From NCBI GenBank assembly GCA_037719575.1, contig JBBJMF010000004.1:132-64131 (forward strand): a stretch of DNA of 64,000 nt, read 5' to 3'. The notes under the pieces were generated by a model, which saw only the letters and a program-made list of their open reading frames with translations, had not been told where the DNA came from and made no database searches. The position numbers and the translations under genes were made by a program. Of this stretch, positions 9,694 to 47,133 are shown one piece after another (the stretch's first letter is position 1; every line of letters starts with the position of its first letter). Source of the stretch: Nocardioidaceae bacterium (GTDB lineage: Bacteria; Actinomycetota; Actinomycetes; Propionibacteriales; Nocardioidaceae).

Positions 9694-10811
9694 GCGGGTG
9701 CTTTCTCCAGCTCCGCGCGGACCGTGTCGAGCAGCTCCTGCCACGACTTCTCGAACTTGTCGACGCCTTCGTCCTCGACCACCTGGACCACGTCGTCGTA
9801 CGAGATGCCGATCTTCTCGAGACGGTCGATAACTTGCTGGGCGTCGTCATAGTGCGTAGTCACCTGGTCGCCGGTGATCTCGGCGTGGTCGGCAGTGGCC
9901 TCGATCGTCGCCTCCGGCATGGTGTTGACGGTGTCCGGGGCGACCAGCTCCACGACGTACATGGTGTCGGGGAGGTCCGGGTCCTTGACCGAGGTTGACG
10001 CCCAGAGCGGTCGCTGCACATGGGCACCGGCGCTCTCCAGCGGTGACCATCGCTCGCTGGTGAAGGTCTCCTGGAACTCGCGGTAGGCGAGGCGCGCGTT
10101 GGCGACGGCGGCCTTGCTGCGCAGGGCCTTGGCCTCGTCGGCATGCTCGGAGTCGGCGAGGGCTTCGAGCCGCTTGTCGACCTCGGTGTCGATGCGGCTG
10201 ACGAAGAACGACGCGACCGAGCGGATCGACGAGAGGTCGACGCCCTTGGAGTGGGCCTGCTCGAGCCCGGCCAGGTAGGCGTCCATCACAGCGCGATAGC
10301 GGTCCAGGCTGAAGATCAGCGTGACGTTGACGCTGATGCCCTCGGAGGTGGCGGCGGTGATCGCGGCCAGCCCCTCCTGGGTGGCCGGAATCTTGATCAT
10401 GACGTTCGGCCGGTCGACGAGCCACCACAGTGCACGGGCCTCAGCGATCGTTGCCTCGGTCCCGTGCGCGAGCCGCGGGTCGACCTCGATGCTGATCCGG
10501 CCGTCCTGCCCATCGGTGCGGTCGTAGACGTCGCGCAGCACATCGCAGGCCCAGCGGACGTCGTACGTCGTGATGGCGCGCACGGCCTCCTCGAGGTCGA
10601 CGCCGCGGACGGCGAGGTCCTTGACCTGCTCGTTGTAGTCCTCAGCGGCCGAGACCGCCTTGGCGAAGATCGTCGGGTTGGACGTCACACCCACCACGTG
10701 GCGCTTCTCGACGAGCTCCGCGAGGTTGCCACTGGTGAGCCGCAGCCGGGAGATATCGTCGAGCCAGACGGACACTCCCTGGTCAGAGAGCTCTTGGAGC
10801 CGATCGGTCAT
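9690..10811 (-). CDS. tal: Transaldolase
   Basis: '[10 protein letters not shown]', 'GVTSNPTIF', 'VMIKIPAT' (Schiff-base Lys) motifs. Confidence 0.95.
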
Positions 10812-10868
10812 GGCTGGTCCTTTCCTTGGCAGAGCCAGGTTGTGCGGGGATAGTCAACGGCTGGTTGC

Positions 10869-12989
10869 TCAACCCTTGGCGTCGGCTGCCGCGATGCTGT
10901 CGATAGCAGCCTGGGTGACGACCTCTGCGGTCATCCCGAACTCCATGTAGAGGCGTTGGTAGTCCGCGGAGGCGCCGAAGTGGTCGATGGAGACGATGCG
11001 TCCGGCATCGCCGACGAGGTCGCGCCACCCCATCGCCACGCCGGCCTCGACTGAGACCCGCGCCTTGACGGTCGGTGGGATCACGATGTCGCGGTAGGTC
11101 CGGTCCTGCTCCTCGAACCACTCGCGGCACGGCATGGAGACCACGCGAGCCCGGATGTTCTTCGCGGCGAGCTGCTCACGCGCGGCGACGGCGATCTGCA
11201 CCTCCGAGCCGGTGCCGATGAGCACGACGTCCGGCGCGCCGCCGTCGACATCCAGCAGGACATAGGCGCCCCTGGACACGTTCGACGTGTCCGAGAAGCC
11301 GTCGGTGCCGCGGGGGAAGGTCGGCACGTTCTGCCGGCTGAGCGCGAGCCCGGCCGGACGGTCGGAGTGCTCGAGGATGGTGCGCCAGGCGGCGACGGTC
11401 TCGTTGGCGTCGGCTGGCCGGACCACGTCGAGGCCGGGGATCGCCCGCAGTGCCGCGAGCTGCTCGATGGGCTGATGGGTGGGGCCGTCCTCGCCGAGGC
11501 CGATGGAGTCGTGGGTCCAGACGTACGTGACCGGCAGCTTCATGAGCGCGGCGAGGCGTACGGCGGGGCGCATGTAGTCGGAGAAGATGAGGAACGTGCC
11601 GCCGTACGGCCGGGTGCCACCGTGCAGCGCGATGCCGTTGAGCAGCGAGCCCATGGCGTGCTCGCGGATGCCGAAGTGCAGGACGCGGCCGTACCAGTCG
11701 CCGCTGAACTCCTTGGTGGCGTGTTCGGGAGGGATGAAGCTCGGCTGGCCCTTGGGCGTCGTGTTGTTCGAGCCGGCCAGGTCGGCGGACCCGCCCCAGA
11801 GCTCCGGGAGAACCGGTGCGATCGCGGTCAGGACGTCGCCGGAGGCGGCCCGAGTGGCCACGCCCTTCTCGCTGGTCTCGAAGGTCGGCAGCGCGTCAGC
11901 CCAGCCGTCCGGCAGGGTGCGGGTGCGCATCCGGTCGTAGAGGGCCCTGCGGTCCCCGGCCTTCGCGTCCCAGGCCTCGAAGCGCTCCTGCCAGGCGGCC
12001 TGTTCCGCCTTTCCGCGCTCGATCGCCTCACGGGTATGAGCGATCACCTCGTCGCTGATATCGAAGGTCTGGTCCGGGTCGAAGCCGAGGATCTTCTTGG
12101 TGGCCGCGACCTCCTCGTCACCGAGCGCATTGCCGTGAGCCTTGAAGGTGTTCTGCAGGGTGGGTGCCGGCCAGCCGATGATGGTGCGCAGCTGGATGAA
12201 GCTCGGGCGCCTGGTCTCCGCCTTGGCCTTCCGGTAGGCGGCGTAGAGCGCCTGCACGTTCTCCTGGTAACCCTTGCCGTCGTTGGTCCAGTCGACAACC
12301 TGCACGTGCCAGCCGTAGGCCTGGTAGCGCTTGGCGACGTCCTCGTTGAACGCGATCGAGGTGTTGTCCTCGATCGAGATCTGGTTGTCGTCGTACAGCA
12401 GCGTCAGGTTGCCGAGCTGCTGGGTGCCGGCGATCGACGACGCCTCGGAGCTGATGCCCTCCTCCAGGTCGCCGTCGCTCGCGAAGACGAAGATGTCGTG
12501 GTCGAAGAGGCTCTCACCCGGCGCCGGTTCCGGGTCGAAGAGCCCACGCTCTCGCCGCGCCGCCATCGCCATCCCGACGGCGTTGCCCACGCCCTGGCCG
12601 AGCGGACCGGTCGTCGTCTCGACCCCGGCGGTGTGGCCGTGCTCGGGGTGACCCGGGGTCATGCTGCCCCACACCCGCAGGCCTTTGAGGTCGTCGAGCT
12701 CGAGGCCGTAACCCGCGTAGTAGAGCTGGATGTAGAGGGTGAGACTGGAGTGTCCGCAGGAGAGCACGAACCTGTCGCGTCCCGGCCAGTCGGGGTCGGC
12801 CGGGTTGTGCCGCATCACCTTCTGGAAGAGCAGGTACGCGGCGGGGGCCAGGCTCATGGCGGTGCCGGGGTGCCCGTTGCCGACCTTCTGCACGGCGTCC
12901 ATCGCGAGCACCCGGACGGTGTCGACGGCGCGGTCGTCGAGGTCGGACCAGTCGAGGCGCGCGGGGCGTGTGGTGGAGGCGCTTGTCAC
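10869..12989 (-). CDS. tkt: Transketolase
   Basis: '[10 protein letters not shown]', 'ASDGDLEEG', '[18 protein letters not shown]' TPP-enzyme motifs. The start is uncertain: GTG 12989 is preferred on homolog length, and the ORF-track start at 13052 is possible. Confidence 0.9.
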
Positions 12990-13217
12990 AGCGTCGGTCC
13001 TTCCTCGGCGTGCTGCACTTGGTTGGCGGTCTGCACTCGGAGAGCGGGCCACAGGTACCGGCGCCGCTCACGGCGAGCCTACTGCCACCGGCCTGTCGCA
13101 TCCCGGACGTGTGCCGCCCCACGACAGCGCACCGGGCCTGCCCGACTAGACTGCATGCGTTGGAAACGCCCGTGCGTCACCAGGTCTGCGCCCGGGCGAC
13201 GTTCACGTCAACTCGAG

Positions 13218-35901: not shown

Positions 35902-36222
35902 TCAGGAGGGGACGTCGTGGATGGTGTCCGACGACGTCGGCGCCGCTGACAGCTGCGGCACCCCCTGGTCCTCGAAGCGTGCCGGGCCGGCCGCCTGCCG
36001 GCCGTCGGCGGCGTTCGCGATGACGACCGCGAAGTAGGGCAGGAAGAACGCACCCCCCACCATTACCCAGCGCAGCGGCCCGCTCAGGACCACGGCGAGC
36101 ACAAAGCACAGGGTGCGGATCCCCATCGAGAAGAGGTACCACGTCTGGCGGCGGCGAATGTCGTCGCTGCGGCTCGACCGGGCCGACGTGATGCTCACGG
36201 GATCTTCGTGCTGCTGGCTCAT
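35902..36222 (-). CDS. DUF3099 membrane protein
   Basis: 'RRRQTWYLFSMGIRTLCFVLAVVL' and 'VGGAFFLPYFAVVIANA' two-helix core. ATG 36222 is preceded by GGAGGGGAGAGG. Confidence 0.75.
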   Translation of the reverse strand: MSQQHEDPVSITSARSSRSDDIRRRQTWYLFSMGIRTLCFVLAVVLSGPLRWVMVGGAFFLPYFAVVIANAADGRQAAGPARFEDQGVPQLSAAPTSSDTIHDVPS

Positions 36223-36343
36223 TGTCGTCCTCTCCCCTCCACCGTACGCCGACCTCGGCGCGCATAGTCGGTGAGCCTGCGGTTTCGCCGGCTGGAGGGA
36301 GCCGGTAGCGTCAAGCGCCTCATCACGCACGGGAGGAGGGCCA

Positions 36344-37048
36344 GTGGGCAGGTCCGTGTTGGTCACCGGTGGCAACCGCGGGATCGGCCGGGTGATCGCG
36401 CAGGCGTTCGCTGACGTGGGTGACCAGGTGGCCGTGACCTACCGGTCCGGAGAGCCGCCGGAAGGCTTCCTGGGCGTGCGCTGCGACGTCACGGACACCA
36501 CAGCGGTGGACGAGGCCTTCGCCACGATCGAGGAGGAGCACGGGCCGGTCGAGGTGCTCGTTGCCAACGCCGGCATTACCCGGGACGGTCTCCTGCTGCG
36601 GATGTCCGACGACGACTGGCAGGCGGTGCTCGAGACCAACCTCACCGGCTCGTTCCGGGTGGCCAAGCGGGCGGCCAAGGGGATGCTCCGCCTTCGCCGC
36701 GGGCGCATCGTGCTGGTGTCGTCGGTCGTGGGCCTGTTGGGATCGGCCGGGCAGGTGAACTACGCCGCGAGCAAGTCCGGCCTGGTCGGGATGGCCAGGT
36801 CGATGGCCCGCGAGCTCGGCAGCCGCTCGATCACCACGAACGTGGTGGCTCCGGGCTTGGTGGAGACGGACATGACGTCGGAGCTTCCCGAGGCGAGGAA
36901 GGCCGAGTACCTGAAGGCGATCCCGCTCGGACGCTACGCCACGAGCCAGGAGGTCGCCGCTGCCGTTCGATGGTTGGCCTCGGACGAGGCCGGCTACATC
37001 ACCGGCGCCGTGATCCCCGTCGACGGTGGCCTGGGCATGGGTCACTGA
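36344..37048 (+). CDS. fabG: 3-oxoacyl-ACP reductase (FabG1/MabA-like)
   Basis: 'VLVTGGNRGIG', 'NAGIT', 'YAASKSGLVGMARSMARE' (YxxxK), 'ITGAVIPVDGGLGMGH'. Precedes inhA as in mycobacteria. Confidence 0.9.
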   Translation: MGRSVLVTGGNRGIGRVIAQAFADVGDQVAVTYRSGEPPEGFLGVRCDVTDTTAVDEAFATIEEEHGPVEVLVANAGITRDGLLLRMSDDDWQAVLETNLTGSFRVAKRAAKGMLRLRRGRIVLVSSVVGLLGSAGQVNYAASKSGLVGMARSMARELGSRSITTNVVAPGLVETDMTSELPEARKAEYLKAIPLGRYATSQEVAAAVRWLASDEAGYITGAVIPVDGGLGMGH

Positions 37049-37111
37049 GCACCACTCGACGACGATCCGATACCGCACCACACCAGAGTGCCGAGCAAAG
37101 GACAGCAAACG

Positions 37112-37882
37112 ATGGGCATCCTCGAAGGCAAGAACATCCTGGTGGCAGGAGTCACGATCGACACCTCGATCGGCTTCGCCACGGCTAAGGTCGCCCAGGA
37201 GCAGGGGGCCACCGTCCTGATCTCCAACTTCGGCAGGGCCCTGTCGATCACCCGCCGCATCGCGAAGCGGCTCCCCGTCGAACCGCCGGTGCTCGAGCTC
37301 GACGTGACCGACGACGAGCACCTGGCGGGGCTCGCCGACCAGGTGCGCGAGCACGTCGACCACCTCGACGGCGTCGTCCACGCGATCGCCTACGGAAACC
37401 CTCAGACGATCCTGGGCGGCAAGTTCCTCGAGGGGCCGTGGCCGGACGTGGGTCAGGCGGTGCACGTGTCGGCGTACTCGCTGCAGGCGCTTGCGGTCGC
37501 CTGCCTGCCCCTGATGGGCAACGGAGGAAGCGTCGTCGGCATGACGTTCGACGCCTCAGTCGCCTGGCCCGGCTACGACTGGATGGGGTTCGCCAAGGGG
37601 GCCCTCGAGTCCTGCAACCGCTACCTCGCACGTGACCTGGGAGCCCACGACATCCGATGCAATCTGGTCAGCGCCGGGCCCCTCAAGACTCTTGCAGCCA
37701 AGGCGATACCCGGTTTCGAGCGCTTCGAGGACGAGTGGGCCAAGCGGGCGCCGATCGGCTGGGACCTGCAAGACCTGGAGCCGACGGCCCGCGGGGCGGT
37801 GGCGCTGCTCAGCGACTTCTTCCCGAAGACGACGGGGGAGATCGTCCACGTGGACGGCGGCTACCACGCGATGGGTGCCTGA
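37112..37882 (+). CDS. inhA: NADH-dependent enoyl-ACP reductase (InhA/FabI)
   Basis: 'GKNILVAGVTIDTSIGFA', 'VHAIAYG', 'GFAKGALESCNRYLARDLG', 'IRCNLVSAGPLKTLA'. ATG 37112. Confidence 0.9.
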   Translation: MGILEGKNILVAGVTIDTSIGFATAKVAQEQGATVLISNFGRALSITRRIAKRLPVEPPVLELDVTDDEHLAGLADQVREHVDHLDGVVHAIAYGNPQTILGGKFLEGPWPDVGQAVHVSAYSLQALAVACLPLMGNGGSVVGMTFDASVAWPGYDWMGFAKGALESCNRYLARDLGAHDIRCNLVSAGPLKTLAAKAIPGFERFEDEWAKRAPIGWDLQDLEPTARGAVALLSDFFPKTTGEIVHVDGGYHAMGA

Positions 37883-37888
37883 GCCGCG

Positions 37889-38866
37889 ATGGCGCGAATC
37901 GAGACCGAGCTGACGCGGCGTTTCGACCTGCACATCCCGGTGGTCGCGGCGTCCATGGCCGGGGTGTCCGACGGCGCGTTCGCTGCGGCGGCCAGCCGGG
38001 CCGGCATCCTCGGCACGATTGGCGTCGGCGGTACGGCGTCCGGAGACTTCGTCCGGACGGAGATGCAGGTGGCGGCCGCCGGGGGTCTGCCCTTCGGCGT
38101 CGGCCTGATGGCCTGGGCGTTGCCGACCCGGCCCGAACAGCTCGACGCCGTGCTGGCCGCTCCGCCGGCACTGGTCTCCGTCAGCTTCGGGGACTATCCG
38201 CCGTACCTCGAGCGGCTGCGGGCCGCGGGATGCGCGCTGGTGACCCAGGTCGGATCGCTGGAGCAGGCTCTGCAGGCGCAGGACGCGGGCGTCGACTTCA
38301 TCGTGAGCCGCGGGTCGGAGGGCGGCGGCCACGGCTACCCGCAGGTCTCCACCCTTCCCTTGTTGCAGGCGGTGCTGGAGCGGGTCAGCGTCCCGGTACT
38401 GGCGGCCGGAGGAATCGGCACGGCCCGCGGGCTGGCCGCCGTCCTGGCTGCTGGAGCCGCCGGCGCCTGGGTGGGATCCGCCTTCGTCAGCTGCCGGGAG
38501 TCGGCCTGGCCGGACGACCAGGTCGCCCAGCTGGCCAGGGCGGACGAGCGCTCGACGGCGTACGGGCATGTCTTCGACGTCGCGTCGGCTGTCGGATGGC
38601 CGGAGGACATCGGCGGCCGCACCTTGCGCAACGACTTCTTCGACCGCTGGAACGGCCACGAGACCGAGCTGCGCAGCGACCCCGAGGCGCTGACAGCGTT
38701 TCGCTCGGCACCCGACAGCCGCGACTTCTCCACAATGCCCGTCTACATCGGGCAGGGCGTCGGGCTCCTCGACGGAACCCGTCCTCGGGTGGCGGACGTC
38801 GTCGCCGAGCTTGCCGGCGCGGCCGGCCTGCTTCGCGCCGGCACGGACCTCGTCACGGGCGGATAG
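37889..38866 (+). CDS. Nitronate monooxygenase family flavoprotein (NMO/FabK-like)
   Basis: 'PVVAASMAGVS', 'GSEGGGHG', 'VLAAGGIGTARG' NMO (PF03060-type) blocks. Starts 6 nt after inhA. Confidence 0.8.
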   Translation: MARIETELTRRFDLHIPVVAASMAGVSDGAFAAAASRAGILGTIGVGGTASGDFVRTEMQVAAAGGLPFGVGLMAWALPTRPEQLDAVLAAPPALVSVSFGDYPPYLERLRAAGCALVTQVGSLEQALQAQDAGVDFIVSRGSEGGGHGYPQVSTLPLLQAVLERVSVPVLAAGGIGTARGLAAVLAAGAAGAWVGSAFVSCRESAWPDDQVAQLARADERSTAYGHVFDVASAVGWPEDIGGRTLRNDFFDRWNGHETELRSDPEALTAFRSAPDSRDFSTMPVYIGQGVGLLDGTRPRVADVVAELAGAAGLLRAGTDLVTGG

Positions 38867-38875
38867 CGTGTCGCG

Positions 38876-40573
38876 GTGACATCATCGCTGCTCGAGCTGC
38901 GCGTGCTCGAGGGTCCGAACCTGTACTTCTCCAAGGCAGCCGTCAAGATCACGCTCGACGTGACTGCGCTCACCGAGGTGAGCCTCGACGTGGCGACCCG
39001 GTTGGCCAAGAGAATCGGGCTGTCGAACATCAGGCCGGGGGAGGCGGGCAGCGGCTTCCGGCAGCGGTTCGCCGCCAGGGCGCTCGCCCGGCTCGTCCGC
39101 CAGGTGGCCGCGGAGGCGGGCACCCACCGGCTCGCGGTGCGGGTCCGGCCCACGAGCGACCCGGACCGGCTGGTCGTCGCGTTCCCGTGGCGGCACCGTA
39201 CTCGCGCCGAAGCCCTCGGCCACGCCGTGGGCGACGTGCTCGACGGTCTGGCCGGCTCGGACATCGACGAAGTGGTCGGCGCCGCGGCGCGGACGGTACG
39301 CAACGCCGACCCGGGGCCTCGCCCACCCACCATCAAGCCACGCGTCCCGGTGGTCTCGGTGACGGGCACCAACGGCAAGACGACGACCTCGCGGATGATC
39401 GGGCACATCGCCCGGGCTGCCGGCCGGCACGTCGCTTGGTCGTCGACGGATGGAATCTATGCCGACGGGGTGCTGGTGGAGAGTGGGGACTACTCCGGGC
39501 CGAGCGGGGCCGGACGGGTGCTCGCGCAGCCGGGCGTGGAGCTGGTGGTGACCGAGACCGCCCGGGGCGGCATCCTGCTCCGGGGCATCGGGCTGACGCA
39601 CAACGACGTCTCCGTGGTGACGAACGTGAGCGCCGACCATCTCGGTCTGCAGGGCATCGACACCGTCGACCAGCTCGCCGAGGTGAAGGCCGTGGTCCCG
39701 CGGATGACGCGCACAGGTGGGTGGGCCGTGCTCAACGGTGACGACCCACGAGTCATCGCGATGCGGTCGGTGATCACCGCCAAGCCGTGGGTCTTCTCCC
39801 GGGACCCGGACTCGCCGTCGATCCGCGAGGTGCTCGGCGTCGGTGGCCGCGCCACCACGGTTGTCGACGGCTGGATCTGCGTCGTCGCTGCCGGTGCCGA
39901 CTTCGACCCGCTCGTGCGTCTTGTCGACGTACCGATGACCCTGTCGGGACTGAGCCACTTCAACGTCGAGAACGCCCTGGCCGCCACCAGCGCCGCGCTG
40001 GGGGTAGGGCTTCCCCGCGAGGCCGTTGTCGAGGGCCTGACCTCGTTCGCGCCGGGGCCGGAGCACAACCCCGGCCGGATGAACATCTACTCGCTGGGCG
40101 ACGTCACCGTCGTGGTCGATCTCGCGCACAACGAGTCCGGACTGGACGCGTTGCTGGAGATCATGCACGGTCTGCGCACGCCCGGCGCGCGGGCGCTGCT
40201 CGCCGTGGGCACCGCAGGTGACCGAAGCGACGGGCTGATTCGCAACCTCGGGGCCATCGGTGCTCGTGGCAGTGACGTGATGGTGATCGTGCACAAGCTG
40301 AAGTATCTGCGCGGACGGCACCAGAACGATCTCGCCGAGCTCTACCGTTCCGGCGCAGCGGAGGTAGGGGTCGACGAGGTGCCGGCCTACGAGACCGAGC
40401 TTGCCGGGCTGGTGGCCCTCCTCGGACGGGCCGGGCCACGCGACGTGGTCGGCCTCATGTGCCACCAGGACCGGACCGAGATCGACCGGTGGCTTCGCGA
40501 GCAGGGCGGCACGGTCGACTCCCCCGAGGTGCTGCGAGACAAGGTGCTCCTCGCCCGCAGCGAGGTCGGCTGA
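38876..40573 (+). CDS. Cyanophycin-synthetase-like protein: N domain fused directly to Mur-ligase (M) domain, ATP-grasp domain absent
   Basis: N-terminal 'LELRVLEGPNLYFSKAAVKITLDV' parallels the CphA1 N domain. From 'VSVTGTNGKTTTSRMI' onward it is colinear with the CphA1 M domain ('TETARGGILLRG', 'NVSADHLGLQGIDTVDQLAEVKA', 'LNGDDP', 'VDLAHNESG', 'GTAGDRSD'). GTG 38876 lies 9 nt after the NMO stop. Confidence 0.8.
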   Translation: MTSSLLELRVLEGPNLYFSKAAVKITLDVTALTEVSLDVATRLAKRIGLSNIRPGEAGSGFRQRFAARALARLVRQVAAEAGTHRLAVRVRPTSDPDRLVVAFPWRHRTRAEALGHAVGDVLDGLAGSDIDEVVGAAARTVRNADPGPRPPTIKPRVPVVSVTGTNGKTTTSRMIGHIARAAGRHVAWSSTDGIYADGVLVESGDYSGPSGAGRVLAQPGVELVVTETARGGILLRGIGLTHNDVSVVTNVSADHLGLQGIDTVDQLAEVKAVVPRMTRTGGWAVLNGDDPRVIAMRSVITAKPWVFSRDPDSPSIREVLGVGGRATTVVDGWICVVAAGADFDPLVRLVDVPMTLSGLSHFNVENALAATSAALGVGLPREAVVEGLTSFAPGPEHNPGRMNIYSLGDVTVVVDLAHNESGLDALLEIMHGLRTPGARALLAVGTAGDRSDGLIRNLGAIGARGSDVMVIVHKLKYLRGRHQNDLAELYRSGAAEVGVDEVPAYETELAGLVALLGRAGPRDVVGLMCHQDRTEIDRWLREQGGTVDSPEVLRDKVLLARSEVG

Positions 40574-40578
40574 GCGCC

Positions 40579-41457
40579 GTGGACCTCGACGCGGTTGCCG
40601 ACGAGCTCTACGCACTGCCTCCTGAGCAGTTCACGACGGCACGGACTTCGCGCGAGAAGGAGGCCAAGGCTGCCGGCGACAAGGACCTCGCCGCGCAGAT
40701 CCATGCGCTGGTCAAGCCGAACCAGGTGGCGTGGCTCGCGAACCAGCTGGCCCGGCAGCACGGCGACGAGGTCGGGCCGCTGCTGGACCTCGGTGCCGGG
40801 CTGCGGGACGCCGCCGGCTCACTCACGGGCGACCAGCTGCGCGACTTCACCAAGCAGAAGCGGCTGCTCGTCTCGGCCCTTGTCGGCCAGGGTCGCCGGC
40901 TGGCTGCCGCTCACGGCCGCAAGGTCAGCGACCTCACCATGCGCGGGCTCGAGGACACCCTCAACGCCGGACTCGCGGACCCGGCCGCCGCAGCTCTGCT
41001 CGTCGCCGGCCGGCTGACCACTGGTCTGCAGTACTCCGGGTTCGGCCCTGCTACCGGTGATGGGGGACCCAACCTGGCGAGCGTGCAGACCACCGACCAG
41101 CCCGCGGGGCGATACACCAGGTCCGGCTCGAAGGAGCAGCGGCTCGCGGAGCGAGTGGCATCCGCCGACCGCGACGTGGAGCAGGCCATGGCGGCGGTGG
41201 CCGAGGCCGGCGCGGCCAGGGCGGATGCGGAGGCCGCAGCGGAGCGCGCGGCCGGCACGTCTCAGGAGATCGAGGGCGAGGTGACTCGGCTACGCGAGGC
41301 GTTGGAGCGGGCAACGACCGCGCAGGCGGAGGCGGACTGGGAACGTCGTCGTACCCGCAAGGAGCTGGAGTCGGCCGAACGAGCGGTGACGCAGGCCGAG
41401 CGGCGGATCGGCGAGGCCAAGGAGCGACGTGCCGCGCTCACGCCGGGGGAGGACTGA
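40579..41457 (+). CDS. Hypothetical protein: helical N-terminal domain plus Ala/Glu/Arg-rich coiled-coil tail
   Basis: 'DLDAVADELYALPPEQFTTAR' is an N-terminus seen in conserved actinobacterial hypotheticals. C-terminal 'EAAAERAAGTSQEIEGEVTRLREALERATTAQAEADWERRRTRKELESAERAV'. GTG 40579 lies 5 nt after the upstream stop. Confidence 0.6.
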   Translation: MDLDAVADELYALPPEQFTTARTSREKEAKAAGDKDLAAQIHALVKPNQVAWLANQLARQHGDEVGPLLDLGAGLRDAAGSLTGDQLRDFTKQKRLLVSALVGQGRRLAAAHGRKVSDLTMRGLEDTLNAGLADPAAAALLVAGRLTTGLQYSGFGPATGDGGPNLASVQTTDQPAGRYTRSGSKEQRLAERVASADRDVEQAMAAVAEAGAARADAEAAAERAAGTSQEIEGEVTRLREALERATTAQAEADWERRRTRKELESAERAVTQAERRIGEAKERRAALTPGED

Positions 41458-41510
41458 CGTCTGGCGGCTCGTTCAGCGCTCGTGCCACGCAAACGCGCGC
41501 GTGGATGTCC

Positions 41511-44342
41511 TCAGAACAGCACGGGCACCTGTGGGTGCGCCGACCCCGCGAGGTCGGGATCGCCCACCAGGGCGTCGTCGGCAGCGCTGGAGGCGCCGGC
41601 CTGCGCGTGGTTGGACCAGGACTCCAGCTCGGCCATCACCGGCGCGTGCTTGTCGACGCACATGATCACCAGGTCGCCCTTGTTGGCGCGGGTCATCGCG
41701 TGCCGCACGGCGTCGATCTCGTCGAGCACGATCTCCACCTGCTTGCACCTCGCACCGTCGGCCATCCTGTCCCGAACCCCGTCGGCCACCAGCCCGGCGG
41801 TCTCGCCGGTCTTGCGCCCACGCAGGGCGGCGTCCTCCCGCACCACGATGACGTCGAAGTGTTCGGCGGCGACCGAGCCGAGCTCTGTCATGTCCTCGTC
41901 ACGGCGGTCCCCCGCAGTGGAGATGACACCGATCCGGGACGGCTTGCCGAGGTCGCTGGTGGCAAGCATGCTGTCGCCCAGCCGGTCGACGAAGTCACCG
42001 AGCATCCGCATCCCGGGAGCGTTGTGGCAGTAGTCGATGACCACGTTGACGCCTTCGACCTCGATCTCGTTGAGCCGGCCGGGGGAGAGGTAGTAGTTCG
42101 TGGAGAACGTCCGCAGGCCCTGCCGGATGTCGTGCAGCGGCGCTCCCGCGGCGAACGCAGCGGCGGCCGCGGCCAGCGAGTTCTGCACGTTCATCAGGGC
42201 CCGGCCGCTGAAGGTGGCGGGGAGCAGATGGGTCCAGGCGAGCTGCATCTGCCGGTTGCCGTGACGTACGACGATCATGTCGCCCATGTCGCTCGTCTCG
42301 AGGACGACCGCCTTGCCCCCTCGACGGCAGTGGATGTCGATGAAGTCGCGCACTTCCGACCCGGCAGGAAGCATGCTGAACCAGACGACCTGACCCGAGC
42401 AGCGCCGCCGCATGGCGCGCACCAGCGGGTCGTCGGCGTTGAGCACCGCGTGGCCGTCGCGCGGGACCGCCTCGACTGGCACCGCCTTGACGTCGGCGAG
42501 CTGCTCGACCGTGTCGACGCCTCGCAGGCCGAGGTGGTCCGGCTGCACGTTGAGCACGACGGCGACGTCGTTGCGCTCATAGCCGAGTCCCTCACGCAGG
42601 ATGCCGCCGCGGGCCACCTCGAAGACCGCAAAGTCCACGCGGGGGTTCTGCAGCACCATCCGGGCGGACTTGGGCCCCGACGCGTCGGCCCGGATCACCA
42701 GCCGTTCGTCGATCACGACGCCGTCGGTCGACGTCATGCCGACCTTGCGACCCATGCCCTTGAAGATGTGGGCGATCATCCGCGACGTCGTGGTCTTGCC
42801 GTTCGTGCCGCTGACGGCGACGATCGGGATCCGGCTGGCAGCCCCCGGGGGGAACATCATGTCGACGACGGCCTTGGAGATGAACTGCGGGTCCCCGATG
42901 GTCGGGTGCGTGTGCATCCGAAAGCCCGGCGCCGCGTTCACCTCGCAGATCGCGCCGCCGGTCTCGCGCACGGGCTCGGTGATGTCGGGGCAGATGAAGT
43001 CGATGCCCGCGATGTCGAGCCCCACGACGCGGGCGGCCTCCTCGGCGATCTCGACGTTCTCCGGGTGGGCCTCGAACGTGCGGTCGATCGAGATGCCGCC
43101 GGTCGACATGTTCCCGGTCAGCGTCAGCTTCACGATCGTCTGGTCGGAGGGTACGTCGGACAGCTCGAAGCCCTGCTCGCGGACCAGCTCGACCGCAGCC
43201 TCGTCGACCTTGATGCGGGTCAGCACCTTCTCGTGGCCGACACCCCGGCGAGGGTCGGCGTTCGTTGCCTCGATCAGCTCCTGGACCGTGTGGGTAGCGT
43301 CCCCGATCACGTGTGCCGGCACCCGCTCGGCGATCGCGGCGATCCGGCCGTCGATGACCAGACAGCGGTAGTCCTTGCCGGTGACGAACGTCTCGACGAT
43401 CACCCAGCCGCGCCGGGACTGCTCCTCCGCGACGGGGAAGGCTGCCCGCACCTCGGCCTCGTCCTGGAGGTCGAGGCACACCCCGCGCCCGTGGTTGCCG
43501 TCGAGCGGCTTGCACACGACGGGAAAGCCGATCCGCCGGGCCACGGCGACGGCCTGGTCGGCCGTCCGCACGGACTCGGCGCGCGGCACCGGCAGTCCGG
43601 CGGCGCCGAGCAGCCGCCCGGTCAGGTCCTTGTCGCTCGCCACGTCGACAGCGATCGACGACGTGCTCGACGTCATCGTGGCGCGGATCCGGCGTTGGTG
43701 GACGCCCTGCCCGAGCTGCACGAGCGAGTGCTGGTTGAGCCGGATCCAGGGGATGTCGCGGGAGACGGCCTCGTCGATGATCGCCTGGGTGGACGGTCCG
43801 AACGCCGTCCGCTCCGCACCGACGATGAACGACTCCAGCTCCTGCTCGAAGTCGAAGTCGGGCTCGGCCTCCACTAGGTGGTTGATGAGGCGGATCGCCA
43901 GCCGCCCGGCCTCGATGCCGACATTCTCGTCGACGTACCCGTAGATGACGTTGTAGCGGCCGTGCTCCCCGGGCACCTGGCGGGTCTTGCCGCGTCGAAG
44001 GTCGTGGCCGACCTCCTGCTGGAACTGCAGCGCGACGTGCTCGCTGACGTGGCCGAGCCAGGTGCCCTCGACGAGCCGCTCGACGAAACCGCCCTTGCGG
44101 CCGCGTGAGCACGAATGGTTGCGCAGCCCCGGGAGCAGGTCGAGCAGCCGCTCGGTGAAGGTCGGCAGCCGGTCCGTCGGCCACTCCTCGAGGCAGCCGA
44201 GGTCGACGACGAGATGCACCGCCTTCTCGTAGGACCAGATGTTGGCGCCGCGGTAGAGCCTGGTCTCGATGATGGCGAGCTCCGGACGGGGTCCGTCGGG
44301 GCTGTGGACGGTACCGGAGGACTTCGCGCCGGTCTCGATCAT
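41511..44342 (-). CDS. cphA: Cyanophycin synthetase CphA1 (N + ATP-grasp + Mur-ligase domains)
   Basis: N domain 'IETRLYRGANIWSYEKAVHLVVDLG'. ATP-grasp 'FPVVCKPLDGNHGRGV', 'YRCLVIDG', 'ICEVNAAPGF'. M domain 'VSGTNGKTTTSRMI', 'NVQPDHLG', 'DYCHNAPG'. ATG 44342 overlaps the cphB stop. Confidence 0.9.
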   Translation of the reverse strand: MIETGAKSSGTVHSPDGPRPELAIIETRLYRGANIWSYEKAVHLVVDLGCLEEWPTDRLPTFTERLLDLLPGLRNHSCSRGRKGGFVERLVEGTWLGHVSEHVALQFQQEVGHDLRRGKTRQVPGEHGRYNVIYGYVDENVGIEAGRLAIRLINHLVEAEPDFDFEQELESFIVGAERTAFGPSTQAIIDEAVSRDIPWIRLNQHSLVQLGQGVHQRRIRATMTSSTSSIAVDVASDKDLTGRLLGAAGLPVPRAESVRTADQAVAVARRIGFPVVCKPLDGNHGRGVCLDLQDEAEVRAAFPVAEEQSRRGWVIVETFVTGKDYRCLVIDGRIAAIAERVPAHVIGDATHTVQELIEATNADPRRGVGHEKVLTRIKVDEAAVELVREQGFELSDVPSDQTIVKLTLTGNMSTGGISIDRTFEAHPENVEIAEEAARVVGLDIAGIDFICPDITEPVRETGGAICEVNAAPGFRMHTHPTIGDPQFISKAVVDMMFPPGAASRIPIVAVSGTNGKTTTSRMIAHIFKGMGRKVGMTSTDGVVIDERLVIRADASGPKSARMVLQNPRVDFAVFEVARGGILREGLGYERNDVAVVLNVQPDHLGLRGVDTVEQLADVKAVPVEAVPRDGHAVLNADDPLVRAMRRRCSGQVVWFSMLPAGSEVRDFIDIHCRRGGKAVVLETSDMGDMIVVRHGNRQMQLAWTHLLPATFSGRALMNVQNSLAAAAAAFAAGAPLHDIRQGLRTFSTNYYLSPGRLNEIEVEGVNVVIDYCHNAPGMRMLGDFVDRLGDSMLATSDLGKPSRIGVISTAGDRRDEDMTELGSVAAEHFDVIVVREDAALRGRKTGETAGLVADGVRDRMADGARCKQVEIVLDEIDAVRHAMTRANKGDLVIMCVDKHAPVMAELESWSNHAQAGASSAADDALVGDPDLAGSAHPQVPVLF

Positions 44343-45346
44343 GCTGTGCCGTCCTCTCGGTCTGGCTCGTCGGTCCCCGAGCCGGCCACGCTCGCCTCCC
44401 AGCCCTGCCGGCTGCGTGCTCGTCGTCTGCGCAGATAGGTCGGGGAGACACCCTCGGCGGCGATGTCGCTCGCCATCCGACGCAGATCCTCCTGCGCCTC
44501 ACGCATCTCCTCGGCGGCATCCGGGTCGAGGTCGGCGGGCATCCGCACCAGGTCCCGGAGCTCAAGGTCGAACCTCGACCCGTCCGGAAGCACGTGCAGC
44601 CGCGCGCCGGAGATCATCAGCGGCCGGGTACGCGTCGCCTGGTGGGCGTTGGACGTCACGTGGGTCCCGTCGATGATCGTCACCGCGCCGCGACCGACGA
44701 CCTCCAAGAACCTGCCCCGCGTGATGACGGCTGCCGTGTCTTCGTCGATGCCGATGCCGAGCAGGTTGGGCGACTGCGCCACGCACATCAGTAGGCGTCC
44801 GTAACGGTTCCGCTGCGTGAAGTGCTGGTCTATCACGCAGCCCTGGACGAGGCCGAGTCCCGCGGCCAGCTGGGTCATTCGCTGCTTGGGCGTCGTGCCC
44901 CCGCTTCCGAAAGCCACCATGTGCGAGGACTGGAAGCTCGCGCCAGCGGACGTGCCGCCGACGGTGATGCCGCGCTCGTGCGCCTGCTTGATCGCCTCGC
45001 CGAACGGGGTGCCGTTGATGATCGCCGAGAGCTTGAGCTGGTTGCCACCCGTCATGAAGATCCCGGTGGCCTCGCCGAGCCGGTCGACGTACGACGGGTC
45101 CGCGGCCTCCTCGCGGCTCTCCGGCCGCACGCCCAGGACCTCCGCCGCGCCCAACCGGGTGAAGAGCGCGACGTACACGTCGATGATCTCCGGGCCGAGG
45201 CTCGACGCGGTCGGGACAACCGCGATGCGCGCCGACGCGCCGCCGCACGCCGCGACGAACCTCGTGAGCACGGTGCGCCTCTGCAGCTTGTCCTCGGCGC
45301 CCCCGATGACATAGAGGGCGCCAACGCCGCCCGCCGAGTCAAGCAT
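44339..45346 (-). CDS. cphB: Cyanophycinase (peptidase S51) with about 65-aa charged C-terminal extension
   Basis: 'LYVIGGAEDK', 'IFMTGGNQLKL', nucleophile motif 'VGGTSAGAS', 'GCVIDQHFTQRNRYGRL'. Confidence 0.9.
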   Translation of the reverse strand: MLDSAGGVGALYVIGGAEDKLQRRTVLTRFVAACGGASARIAVVPTASSLGPEIIDVYVALFTRLGAAEVLGVRPESREEAADPSYVDRLGEATGIFMTGGNQLKLSAIINGTPFGEAIKQAHERGITVGGTSAGASFQSSHMVAFGSGGTTPKQRMTQLAAGLGLVQGCVIDQHFTQRNRYGRLLMCVAQSPNLLGIGIDEDTAAVITRGRFLEVVGRGAVTIIDGTHVTSNAHQATRTRPLMISGARLHVLPDGSRFDLELRDLVRMPADLDPDAAEEMREAQEDLRRMASDIAAEGVSPTYLRRRRARSRQGWEASVAGSGTDEPDREDGTA

Positions 45347-45414
45347 GCCCGAACCCTACGGGCCAGCGCCCGGTGTCGAGTGCCCGGCTCGCTGCGGATG
45401 GGCAAGACTGGGGC

Positions 45415-45918
45415 ATGGTCGAAACAGGCTACCTACAGTTGATCGTGATGCGCCACGCGAAGACCGAGCAGTCCGCGAGCAGCGACCGGGCCCGCCGGCT
45501 GACGTCCAGAGGTCGCCGCGACGCCCGGTCCGCGGGCAGCTGGCTGCGCGACAGCTCGCTCCTCCCCGGCCTCGTGCTGGTGTCACCGGCTGCGCGGGCC
45601 GAGGCCACCGCGGACCTGGTGTGTGCAGCACTGGAGGCAGCGCCGGACGTGCGTGTCGAGGAAGGCCTCTACGGCGCCTCTCCCGCCGATGCCCTCGAAA
45701 CGGTCCGGGCCGAAGGCGGTGCGGCCGCGGTGGTGCTCATCGTCGGCCACAACCCGACGATGGGCGAGCTTGCCCACGCACTCCAGGAAGACCATGCAGA
45801 TCCCCGGGCCCCGCACCTGCCGACCGCCGGTTTGGCGGTGCTCAAGGTGGAAGGCGAGTGGGCGGACCTCTCGATGGGTTCGGCGGAGCTCACCCACTGG
45901 CAGGTCCCCCGCGGCTGA
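45415..45918 (+). CDS. Histidine phosphatase family protein (SixA-like)
   Basis: 'LIVMRHAKTE' RHG-type catalytic motif, 'LTSRGRRDA', 'IVGHNPTMGELA'. ATG 45415. Confidence 0.8.
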   Translation: MVETGYLQLIVMRHAKTEQSASSDRARRLTSRGRRDARSAGSWLRDSSLLPGLVLVSPAARAEATADLVCAALEAAPDVRVEEGLYGASPADALETVRAEGGAAAVVLIVGHNPTMGELAHALQEDHADPRAPHLPTAGLAVLKVEGEWADLSMGSAELTHWQVPRG

Positions 45919-45927
45919 CGGGGCTCC

Positions 45928-47133
45928 TCAGAGCGCGGGGCGCGGTGTCTCGATCCCGTCCAGCCGGTCCTCGGCCTCGATGTCTTCTCGGCTGATGCCG
46001 AGCAGGTACATGATCGTGTCCAGGTAGGGAACGCTGACCGCGGCGTGGGCCCGCTGGCGCACGGTGGGCTTGGCGTTGAAGGCGATCCCGAGTCCAGCGG
46101 CGGCAAGCATCTCGAGGTCGTTGGCACCGTCTCCGATGGCCACCGTCCGCTCGGTGCCGAGGCCCTGGGCGGCCGCGAACCGGCGAAGCGCGTCCGCCTT
46201 GCCGTGGGCGTCGACCACGGGGCCGAGCAGGCGGCCGGTCAACCGTTCATCGACGATCTCGAGCTCGTTGCTCGCCGTGTCGACGATCCCGAGCTCGGTG
46301 GCGATCCGGTCGGTGATCGCGCCGAACCCGCCGCTCACCAAGGCGATGCGGTAGCCGAGTCGGTGGAGGGTGCGCACCAGGGTGCGCGCACCTGGCGCGA
46401 GCGGCAGCGCGTCGTACACGCGAGTGAGCGCGCTCTCGTGCAGACCGGCGAGCAGGGCGACCCGCTGACGCAGGGCGTCGGCGAAGTCCAACGTGCCGCG
46501 CATGGCCCGCTCGGTGAGGGCCGACACCTCCGGGGCGACCCCGGCCTCCGCTGCGAGGAGGTCGATGGCCTCGCCCTGGACGAGCGTCGAGTCGACGTCG
46601 AGCACCAGCAGCCGGCGCCCGTGTCGCAGCAGACCGACAGCCTGGACGGCGACATCGACCCTCTGCCGGGCAGCTTCGAGGGCGAGCATCTCGCGAAGCC
46701 GCATGACATCGGCCCCGGAGACGTGCATCTCGATCGCGGTCACGGGGTAGCGCGCCATCCGTACGATGCGGTCGATGTTGGCGCCGGTGTCGGCGATGCG
46801 ACCCGAGACGGCCGAGACCGCCCGCGCCGACAGCGGTTGCCCGAGGACCGTGACGTGCACCCGGCCACGGCGCCGATGCTCGTTGTCGCCGGTGCCGCGC
46901 TGGACCTCCAGGTCCATCCCCAGGGCGTCGGCACTCGCCGTGACGGCTGCCGTCAGCGCCCGGTGGTTCGTCGGCGCCGTGACGAGGATGCTGAGCACGA
47001 GCCGTCGCCTGAGCACGCTCTGCTCGATGTCGAGCACCTCGACGGCGAAGCTGGCCAGCGCCTCGAAGAGCGCGGCGGTGACCCCTGGGCGGTCGGGTCC
47101 GGTGGCGAGCAGGAGCAGGGTCGGTGTCGTCAT
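45928..47133 (-). CDS. serB: Phosphoserine phosphatase SerB (ACT domains + HAD)
   Basis: N-terminal ACT-like repeats ('GPDRPGVTAALFEAL'), HAD motifs 'LLVLDVDSTLV', 'ALVSGGF', 'AIGDGANDLEML'. Confidence 0.9.
   Translation of the reverse strand: MTTPTLLLLATGPDRPGVTAALFEALASFAVEVLDIEQSVLRRRLVLSILVTAPTNHRALTAAVTASADALGMDLEVQRGTGDNEHRRRGRVHVTVLGQPLSARAVSAVSGRIADTGANIDRIVRMARYPVTAIEMHVSGADVMRLREMLALEAARQRVDVAVQAVGLLRHGRRLLVLDVDSTLVQGEAIDLLAAEAGVAPEVSALTERAMRGTLDFADALRQRVALLAGLHESALTRVYDALPLAPGARTLVRTLHRLGYRIALVSGGFGAITDRIATELGIVDTASNELEIVDERLTGRLLGPVVDAHGKADALRRFAAAQGLGTERTVAIGDGANDLEMLAAAGLGIAFNAKPTVRQRAHAAVSVPYLDTIMYLLGISREDIEAEDRLDGIETPRPAL

Follow-up and report, generated by a model that had tools for sequence, protein, structure and literature searches.

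Cyanophycin synthesis is currently described in terms of two enzymes: CphA1, composed of N, G and M domains, does everything, and CphA2, with an active G domain and a dead M domain, re-polymerises dipeptides. Here we analyse a gene encoded next to cphA1 in a 64,000-nucleotide stretch of DNA from a Nocardioidaceae bacterium (contig JBBJMF010000004.1; this whole stretch is called the window below), whose 565-amino acid (aa) product joins a CphA-type N domain to a Mur-ligase-type M domain. We refer to it as the N-M protein. CphA1 (TIGR02068; structures 7LG5, 7LGQ, 7WAE and 7LGN) is its best match in both sequence and structure, and the two have in common the fold of the N domain, a complete M core with its lid and, according to the predicted structure, the docking of N on M. 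However, CphA1 possesses an ATP-grasp G domain of ~325 aa and a Cx19HxxEH motif, neither of which is found in the N-M protein. Since it lacks the G domain and falls short of the TIGR02068 cut-off, the N-M protein is not a CphA1.

CphA2 retains an active G domain and keeps a truncated, inactive M domain as a structural element (PMC10273328), and is thus, as a preliminary description of this locus had stated, the opposite truncation. Both CphA2 (7TA5, 8FXH/8FXI) and the N-M protein are reduced derivatives of CphA1 whose N domain is non-catalytic, and their N folds match with template modelling (TM) scores of 0.52-0.61. It polymerises beta-Asp-Arg dipeptides with its active G domain, whereas the N-M protein has a full-length M domain with a lid and no G domain. 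Moreover, CphA2 has been described as a specialised cyanobacterial enzyme, while the N-M family is found in Actinomycetes.

The third point of comparison is the Mur ligase superfamily. MurE, MurD, MurC and MurF, as well as MurT, CapB/PgsB and FolC, share with the N-M protein a central ATPase domain followed by a C-terminal domain, a P-loop, a Mg-binding Glu, a D-H pair and a Lys, and the acyl-phosphate mechanism of Mur ligases is predicted for the N-M protein as well. By these features and by its Mur_ligase_M and Mur_ligase_C domains the N-M protein belongs to the superfamily, but it stays below the equivalog cut-offs for MurC to MurF, its best NCBIfam Mur score being 96 bits for MurE against a cut-off of 373. 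MurC to MurF carry an N-terminal domain that binds the UDP-sugar (UDP-MurNAc), in place of which the N-M protein has the CphA N fold; the Mur ligases lie in the dcw cluster context, and the N-M gene among cyanophycin genes.

The preliminary description knew of no characterised enzyme made of N and M only, and we likewise found none in Pfam, NCBIfam, the PDB or the open-access and bioRxiv literature. The same literature contained nothing relevant on cyanophycin in Nocardioides or Actinobacteria. There, the name 'CphA3' designates beta-lactamases of Aeromonas.

A CphA-like protein without a G domain

The N-M gene, its parts and the two cyanophycin genes beside it are as follows (positions are those of the window).

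38876..40573, + strand: N-M gene (whole), GTG start, 565 aa (open reading frame, Pfam/NCBIfam domains, structure models, fold matches, dN/dS)
38876..39310, + strand: N domain, aa 1-145, CphA-type N fold, Arg-rich (hhalign, PDB fold matches, invariant columns)
39311..39346, + strand: Pro-rich linker, aa 146-157, at the position of the ~325-aa ATP-grasp G domain of CphA1 (DSSP of the model, BLAST)
39347..40060, + strand: M core, aa 158-395 (Pfam Mur_ligase_M 162-373, alignment to SuCphA1 7lg5)
39365-39382, + strand: P-loop GTNGKT, aa 164-169, in the M core
40061..40573, + strand: M lid, Mur_ligase_C, ~aa 396-545, then C-terminal tail and stop (Pfam Mur_ligase_C 400-527)
41511..44342, - strand: CphA1, 943 aa, N-G-M (TIGR02068 1155 bits, cut-off 850; Pfam Cyanophycin_syn, ATP-grasp and Mur_ligase_M/C)
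44339..45346, - strand: CphB cyanophycinase, 335 aa (TIGR02069 258 bits, cut-off 127)

The G+C content of the window is ~70%. Orthologs of the N-M protein open with the same peptide as the 565-aa product, MTSSL[LV]ELRV, which argues that the GTG start is the right one, and all peptide strings quoted in the preliminary description are present in the translations. Compared with the closest orthologs, the ratio of non-synonymous to synonymous substitution rates (dN/dS) is 0.11-0.16 in the N and M domains alike. With hundreds of orthologs in addition, this establishes the N-M gene as a real gene under purifying selection.

The protein consists of the N domain (aa 1-145), a linker of 12 residues and the M domain (aa 158-545). 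Both blocks had been proposed before, together with the absence of G, and a degenerate ATP-grasp fold between them had been named as a possible objection. No ATP-grasp profile of Pfam matches anywhere in the 565 aa. According to DSSP on a full-length model (predicted local distance difference test, pLDDT, 89.7; predicted TM score, pTM, 0.86), the last helix of N spans residues 130-143 and the first strand of M residues 159-163, leaving 12-15 residues between them, and the BLAST alignment to the neighbouring CphA1 picks up at aa 150, which corresponds to aa 498 of that protein. The model superposes on entire CphA1 chains over ~885 columns, skipping the G domain, with TM scores of 0.76-0.80 (query-normalised), whereas PDB matches that cover M only reach 0.54 on the same scale. 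This difference indicates that, in the predicted structure, N is docked on M as in CphA1. Profiles and model thus agree that the G domain is wholly absent and that even a degenerate version would not fit, in keeping with the initial proposal. Devoid of G, the N-M protein is expected not to synthesise the Asp backbone.

The M domain keeps the active site of CphA1

The second block had been read as colinear with the M domain of CphA1, and BLASTP bears this out (39% identity to the neighbouring CphA1, aa 150-529 against 498-895, E 2e-62). In Pfam, the 565-aa protein matches Mur_ligase_M (64.8 bits) and Mur_ligase_C (36.4 bits) above their cut-offs and no other domain; its match to TIGR02068 is confined to model positions 475-847 and scores 363 bits where 850 are required. 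The best relatives of solved structure are the M domains of CphA1 (7LG5, E 3e-72), with MurE at E 4e-15, and fold matches to MurE and MurD have a probability of 1.0.

Active-site residues were mapped through a gap-free alignment to SuCphA1 (7lg5), with functional roles taken from two published studies (PMC9427784 and PMC9262961). The M core contains the P-loop residues N166, K168 and T169, equivalent to N497, K499 and T500 of TeCphA1, the Mg ligands T191 and E227 (T522 and E558), the D254-H255 pair, K271 and the adenine-stacking F362 (F692). The lid contributes R401 and H418 (R731 and H748) together with D415, N419 and a GDR[S/T]D motif. All eight TeCphA1 residues are ATP or Mg contacts (PMC9427784), and D254-H255 aligns with D585-H586 of SuCphA1, mutation of which inactivates the M domain (PMC9262961). 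Every mapped ATP-binding, Mg-binding or catalytic residue is invariant or at least 90% conserved across the N-M family, with GTNGKT, E227, D254-H255 and K271 invariant, so that the loss of catalytic residues envisaged as a possible objection is not seen. When 75 N-M and 68 CphA1 M domains are aligned, both groups conserve one and the same residue at 108 columns. Such retention of the ATP, Mg and catalytic residues, combined with the low dN/dS, is the signature of what we predict to be an active ligase rather than a pseudoenzyme.

The N domain

Relating the first block to the N domain of CphA1 was less straightforward. The proposed similarity does not appear in pairwise comparison, as BLAST of this block against the neighbouring CphA1 yields no significant match (E 0.57), and Pfam PF18921 matches none of 11 family members even with E-values up to 10. 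Sequence-only domain mapping therefore fails here, and profiles and structure are needed. By these means the proposal does hold: in hhalign, the N profile of the family aligns with that of actinobacterial CphA1 (75% probability, E 2.5e-5, aa 4-117 against 23-148), and an AlphaFold 2 model of aa 1-155 (pLDDT 93.8) retrieves nothing but N domains of CphA1 and CphA2 in the first 15 PDB matches, with TM scores of 0.52-0.62, the first fold of another kind following at 0.33. Given this agreement of profile-profile comparison and structure predictions, we consider the homology to the CphA N domain real.

A phmmer search with aa 1-155 against 1.84 billion representative sequences returned 210 matches, all in the N-M family; the complete proteins among them measure 519-585 aa, with one of 745 aa carrying a TPR extension, and no protein of CphA1 length was matched. 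The most conserved motif of the domain, an L-x-GPNLYF loop, is invariant in the family and corresponds to the hydrophobic N-domain loop of SuCphA1, which contacts the M domain (PMC9262961).

In most CphA1s a Cx19HxxEH metallopeptidase motif in the N domain generates primers, and the domain also serves as the polymer-tethering module (PMC9262961). The motif is absent from aa 1-145 of the N-M protein, where hhalign places LARLVRQVAAE at the equivalent helix. The neighbouring CphA1 keeps it complete (HSC...GHVSEH, that is HSC-x19-HVSEH, aa ~79-105), and this enzyme is therefore predicted to be primer-independent by the criteria of that study (PMC9262961). As the partner CphA1 carries this primer-generating site, primer supply is a less likely role for the N-M protein.

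Distribution and linkage to cphA1 and cphB

The N-domain motif occurs, with confirmation by tblastn, in at least 597 stretches of species-representative genomes, and thousands of 90%-identity clusters are annotated merely as 'Mur ligase family protein' or, at JGI, as 'cyanophycin synthetase'. The named sources are all Actinomycetes: Nocardioides, Marmoricola-like Nocardioidaceae, Microlunatus, Antricoccus, a metagenome-assembled genome (MAG) of Mycobacteriales, and Nostocoides. Two members occur in MAGs labelled Proteobacteria, L020 (Sphingomonas paucimobilis) and P0462 (Glaciecola sp.); L020 has the order fabI, N-M gene, cphA1, cphB typical of Nocardioidaceae, which makes mis-binning a more likely explanation than horizontal transfer.

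Linkage was counted in the best 80 of these at least 597 stretches, mostly from one family, 69 of which were evaluable. The usual order is fabG, fabI and the N-M gene in one direction, then cphA1 and cphB in the opposite direction, and serB farther along. A CphA1 G domain is encoded within ~10 kb of the N-M gene in 65 of the 69 evaluable loci, always convergent with it, and one more lies at a locus edge; the median distance between the 3' ends of the N-M gene and cphA1 is 781 nucleotides (nt). Three Nocardioidaceae loci (L015, L035 and L057) have the N-M gene with no cphA1 within ~8.8 kb downstream or 10 kb upstream.

Since these 80 loci represent one family, we also inspected eight divergent ones, namely L085, L086, L088, L089, L091, L092 and L093, from metagenomic sequence or MAGs, and L094, from the isolate genome of Nostocoides sp. 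HKS02 (CP046121.1). In the metagenomic members, the N domain shares 30-50% identity with that of the window. A full-length cphA1 is present within 3 kb in all eight, in differing surroundings. In L085 and L086, cphB, cphA1 and the N-M gene follow one another on a single strand, 4-25 nt apart; in L089 the 3' ends of the N-M gene and cphA1 abut, with no cphB nearby; in L092 three genes separate the two; and in L088, L091, L093 and L094 (Nostocoides, Micrococcales) they are convergent. Adjacency to fabI is lost in L085, L086, L089, L092 and L093, where adjacency to cphA1 is kept.

The reverse test started from 80 metagenomic cphA1 loci with G domains 77-87% identical to that of the window, 43 of which were too short to judge. 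In all 37 with enough flank an N-M gene lies downstream, and it is missing from no locus that extends at least 9 kb in that direction. The linkage of the N-M gene with cphA1 and cphB is thus tight and reciprocal across Actinomycetes. Co-occurrence of this kind had been suggested as a check on the preliminary description, and the opposite outcome, homologs mostly in genomes without cphA1 or cphB, is not what the evaluated loci display.

Some loci deserve separate mention. In L094, cphA1 is called as two overlapping open reading frames, 10001-10705 (234 aa, N) and 10653-13004 (783 aa, G-M), a split that could stem from a sequencing error, a frameshift or decay to a pseudogene; next to it, the gene for an N-M protein with a TPR tail is intact. 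On the long MAG contig L002 (13241-19758), cphA1, cphB and serB are fragmented, for example into a 299-aa Mur_ligase_C piece, whereas the N-M gene remains whole. Frameshifts introduced in assembly probably account for this, the alternative being genuine decay of the cphA1 cluster. In L091 (6727-8964) and L094 (13034-15220), members that share the setting of fabG-fabI and cphA1-cphB, the N-M core continues into a C-terminal TPR_5 extension, giving proteins of 728-745 aa. The tail hints at contacts with other proteins, CphA1 or granule proteins being possible partners.

A gene resembling M20 glutamate carboxypeptidases lies beside the N-M gene in L086 (11661-12863), L085 (13098-14264) and L092 (2188-3381). 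These hydrolases are orthologous (51-53% identical between loci), and the one in L086 stands immediately downstream of the N-M gene on the same strand. Such an enzyme might cleave the bond made by the N-M ligase. As a general partner it was rejected, being confined to these three loci outside Nocardioidaceae and absent from the window and all Nocardioidaceae loci.

Divergence from the M domains of CphA1

In the alignment of N-M with CphA1 M domains used above (75 and 68 sequences), 43 columns reach at least 90% conservation within either group but differ in residue between the two. Among the positions that SuCphA1 shares with actinobacterial CphA1, the switches include R566 to L235, E529 to G198, L623 to R292, E800 to K474 and Y746 to L416. 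R566 is Arg in all CphA1s examined, E800/K474 lies in the lid, and the GDRRD motif of CphA1 becomes GDR[S/T]D in the N-M family. The N-M M domain is 34-38% identical to that of its own partner CphA1 and 36-41% to that of SuCphA1, whereas actinobacterial and cyanobacterial CphA1s are 48-52% identical to each other, which places the family outside the CphA1 clade, as what appears from these identities to be an old or fast-evolving lineage. Net charge differs as well: in the same genomes, the median is +7 in N and -17 in M for the N-M proteins, against -4 and -2 for their partner CphA1s.

Two explanations for the gene were discarded. A degraded pseudogene, or a recent deletion derivative of the neighbouring CphA1, is incompatible with the dN/dS values and the hundreds of orthologs, and a recent deletion also with an M domain 38% identical to the neighbouring CphA1 and 41% to a cyanobacterial one. 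Compensation for a defective partner can be set aside too, since the partner CphA1s exceed the TIGR02068 cut-off and keep their M catalytic residues.

Proposed function and alternatives

We consider it rather probable that the N-M module descends from a cyanophycin synthetase that lost its ATP-grasp G domain and works as a trans-acting, ATP-dependent ligase onto Asp side chains. In CphA1, N domain and M core flank a cyanophycin analogue bound at the M site (PMC9427784), so a protein with both domains would retain this two-domain substrate site. What we infer about acceptor, added amino acid and physiological role is the following. As it presumably cannot extend the backbone, the N-M protein would have to act in trans on chains made by CphA1, binding an Asp-containing polymer or oligomer from its neighbour; candidate acceptors are nascent, under-arginylated or partly degraded cyanophycin, or poly-Asp. 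It would phosphorylate the Asp beta-carboxylate with ATP and then ligate to it, through an isopeptide bond, an amino acid that may be arginine or possibly another residue.

Several observations weigh against this proposal. Since the partner CphA1 already possesses an intact M domain, there is no obvious need for a second arginine ligase. Several of the 43 family-specific switches alter charge at residues conserved in cyanobacterial CphA1, so that the acceptor or the amino acid may differ from those of the CphA1 reaction. A single family supplies most of the co-localisation data, and gene order there could partly reflect common descent. In Nocardioidaceae, the N-M gene is convergent with cphA1 and immediately follows the co-directional fabG-fabI, and an arrangement allowing co-transcription with cyanophycin genes is found in some lineages only (L085, L086).

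Could the enzyme be a ligase of altered specificity, giving a chemically distinct polymer in Actinomycetes? It might add a residue other than Arg (Lys, Orn or Glu), act on internal rather than C-terminal Asp, or use the alpha-carboxylate of side-chain Arg. The 43 substitutions in M, among them R566 to L235 and the lid change E800 to K474, the GDR[S/T]D motif, the position outside the CphA1 clade, the charges reversed relative to the partner CphA1 and the M20 gene beside some N-M genes are all consistent with this idea, and on the strength of the switched residues and reversed charges we lean towards some change of acceptor or amino acid. However, the charge differences are whole-domain averages and the M20 association is limited to three loci, and as a rival to the main proposal we regard altered specificity as rather unlikely.

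A non-catalytic or regulatory partner, whether scaffold, granule-associated factor or subunit of a hetero-oligomer, is improbable. Precedents exist in the M domain that CphA2 keeps as an inactive structural element (PMC10273328) and in the polymer-tethering N domain of CphA1 (PMC9262961), and the TPR extension of some members is a protein-interaction module. However, the ATP, Mg and catalytic residues are near-invariant even though N domains have diverged to ~30% identity, which is unexpected of a pseudoenzyme, and where CphA2 has a truncated M domain, the N-M protein has all of it, lid included.

Finally, a role outside cyanophycin metabolism, in which the gene would belong with fabG-fabI in fatty-acid or cell-envelope synthesis and its closeness to cphA1 would be inherited order, is likewise improbable: Mur ligases are classically cell-wall enzymes, and in Nocardioidaceae and Intrasporangiaceae the N-M gene, convergent rather than co-directional with cphA1, starts a median of 45 nt after a same-strand fabI (at most 150 nt in 58 of 78 loci), but the divergent members L085, L086, L089, L092 and L093 drop fabI and keep cphA1, even co-directionally, the closest relatives are by the E-values above CphA1 M domains and not MurE, and the N fold is otherwise found only in cyanophycin synthetases.

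Other genes of the locus

The remaining features around the N-M gene in the window are:

36344-37048, + strand: FabG1-like 3-oxoacyl-ACP reductase (NCBIfam)
37088-37882, + strand: enoyl-ACP reductase, FabI/InhA-like (NCBIfam)
37889-38866, + strand: NMO-family gene (Pfam NMO), ending 9 nt before the N-M start
40579..41457, + strand: hypothetical 292-aa protein, Ala/Glu/Arg-rich (gene call in L001; no family match)

The three upstream genes (36344..38866) are possibly co-transcribed with the N-M gene. The slot of the latter, downstream of fabG1-like and fabI/inhA-like genes, is that of hemZ in the mabA-inhA operon of M. tuberculosis. In the window, as in a few close relatives (L002, L005, L006, L031 and L053), the NMO-family gene separates fabI from the N-M gene.

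On the other side, the gene for the 292-aa protein, probably a coiled coil, sits between the N-M gene and cphA1. Its homologs are found only in the closest relatives (L001, L002 and L005), so it is probably outside the system; in other genomes what occupies this slot varies, with inserts of 0 to 7 kb. The cphA1 gene is convergent with the N-M gene, and cphB lies directly upstream of it on the minus strand, with a 4-nt overlap between its stop codon and the start of cphA1. A scan of positions 36000-46000 for promoters and terminators revealed nothing informative.

Implications for cyanophycin metabolism

A widespread, conserved, side-chain-ligating half of cyanophycin synthetase adjoining cphA1 suggests an unrecognised step in cyanophycin metabolism, be it repair, completion or alternative decoration. 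Tentatively, the N-M protein might be the first of a third class of enzyme for cyanophycin, a ligase devoted to side chains and acting in trans, the mirror image of CphA2, that alters the composition or completeness of the polymer. If so, it could, for example, add a second side-chain amino acid or fill in internal unmodified Asp residues out of the reach of CphA1. As a naturally isolated M-domain module, the protein could help to dissect the arginylation reaction, and, in line with a declared aim of applied cyanophycin work, it could be used to engineer derivatives of cyanophycin or poly-Asp whose side chains are defined. For the Actinomycetes, a large soil group, such a third class would mean that cyanophycin synthesis is a two-enzyme process.

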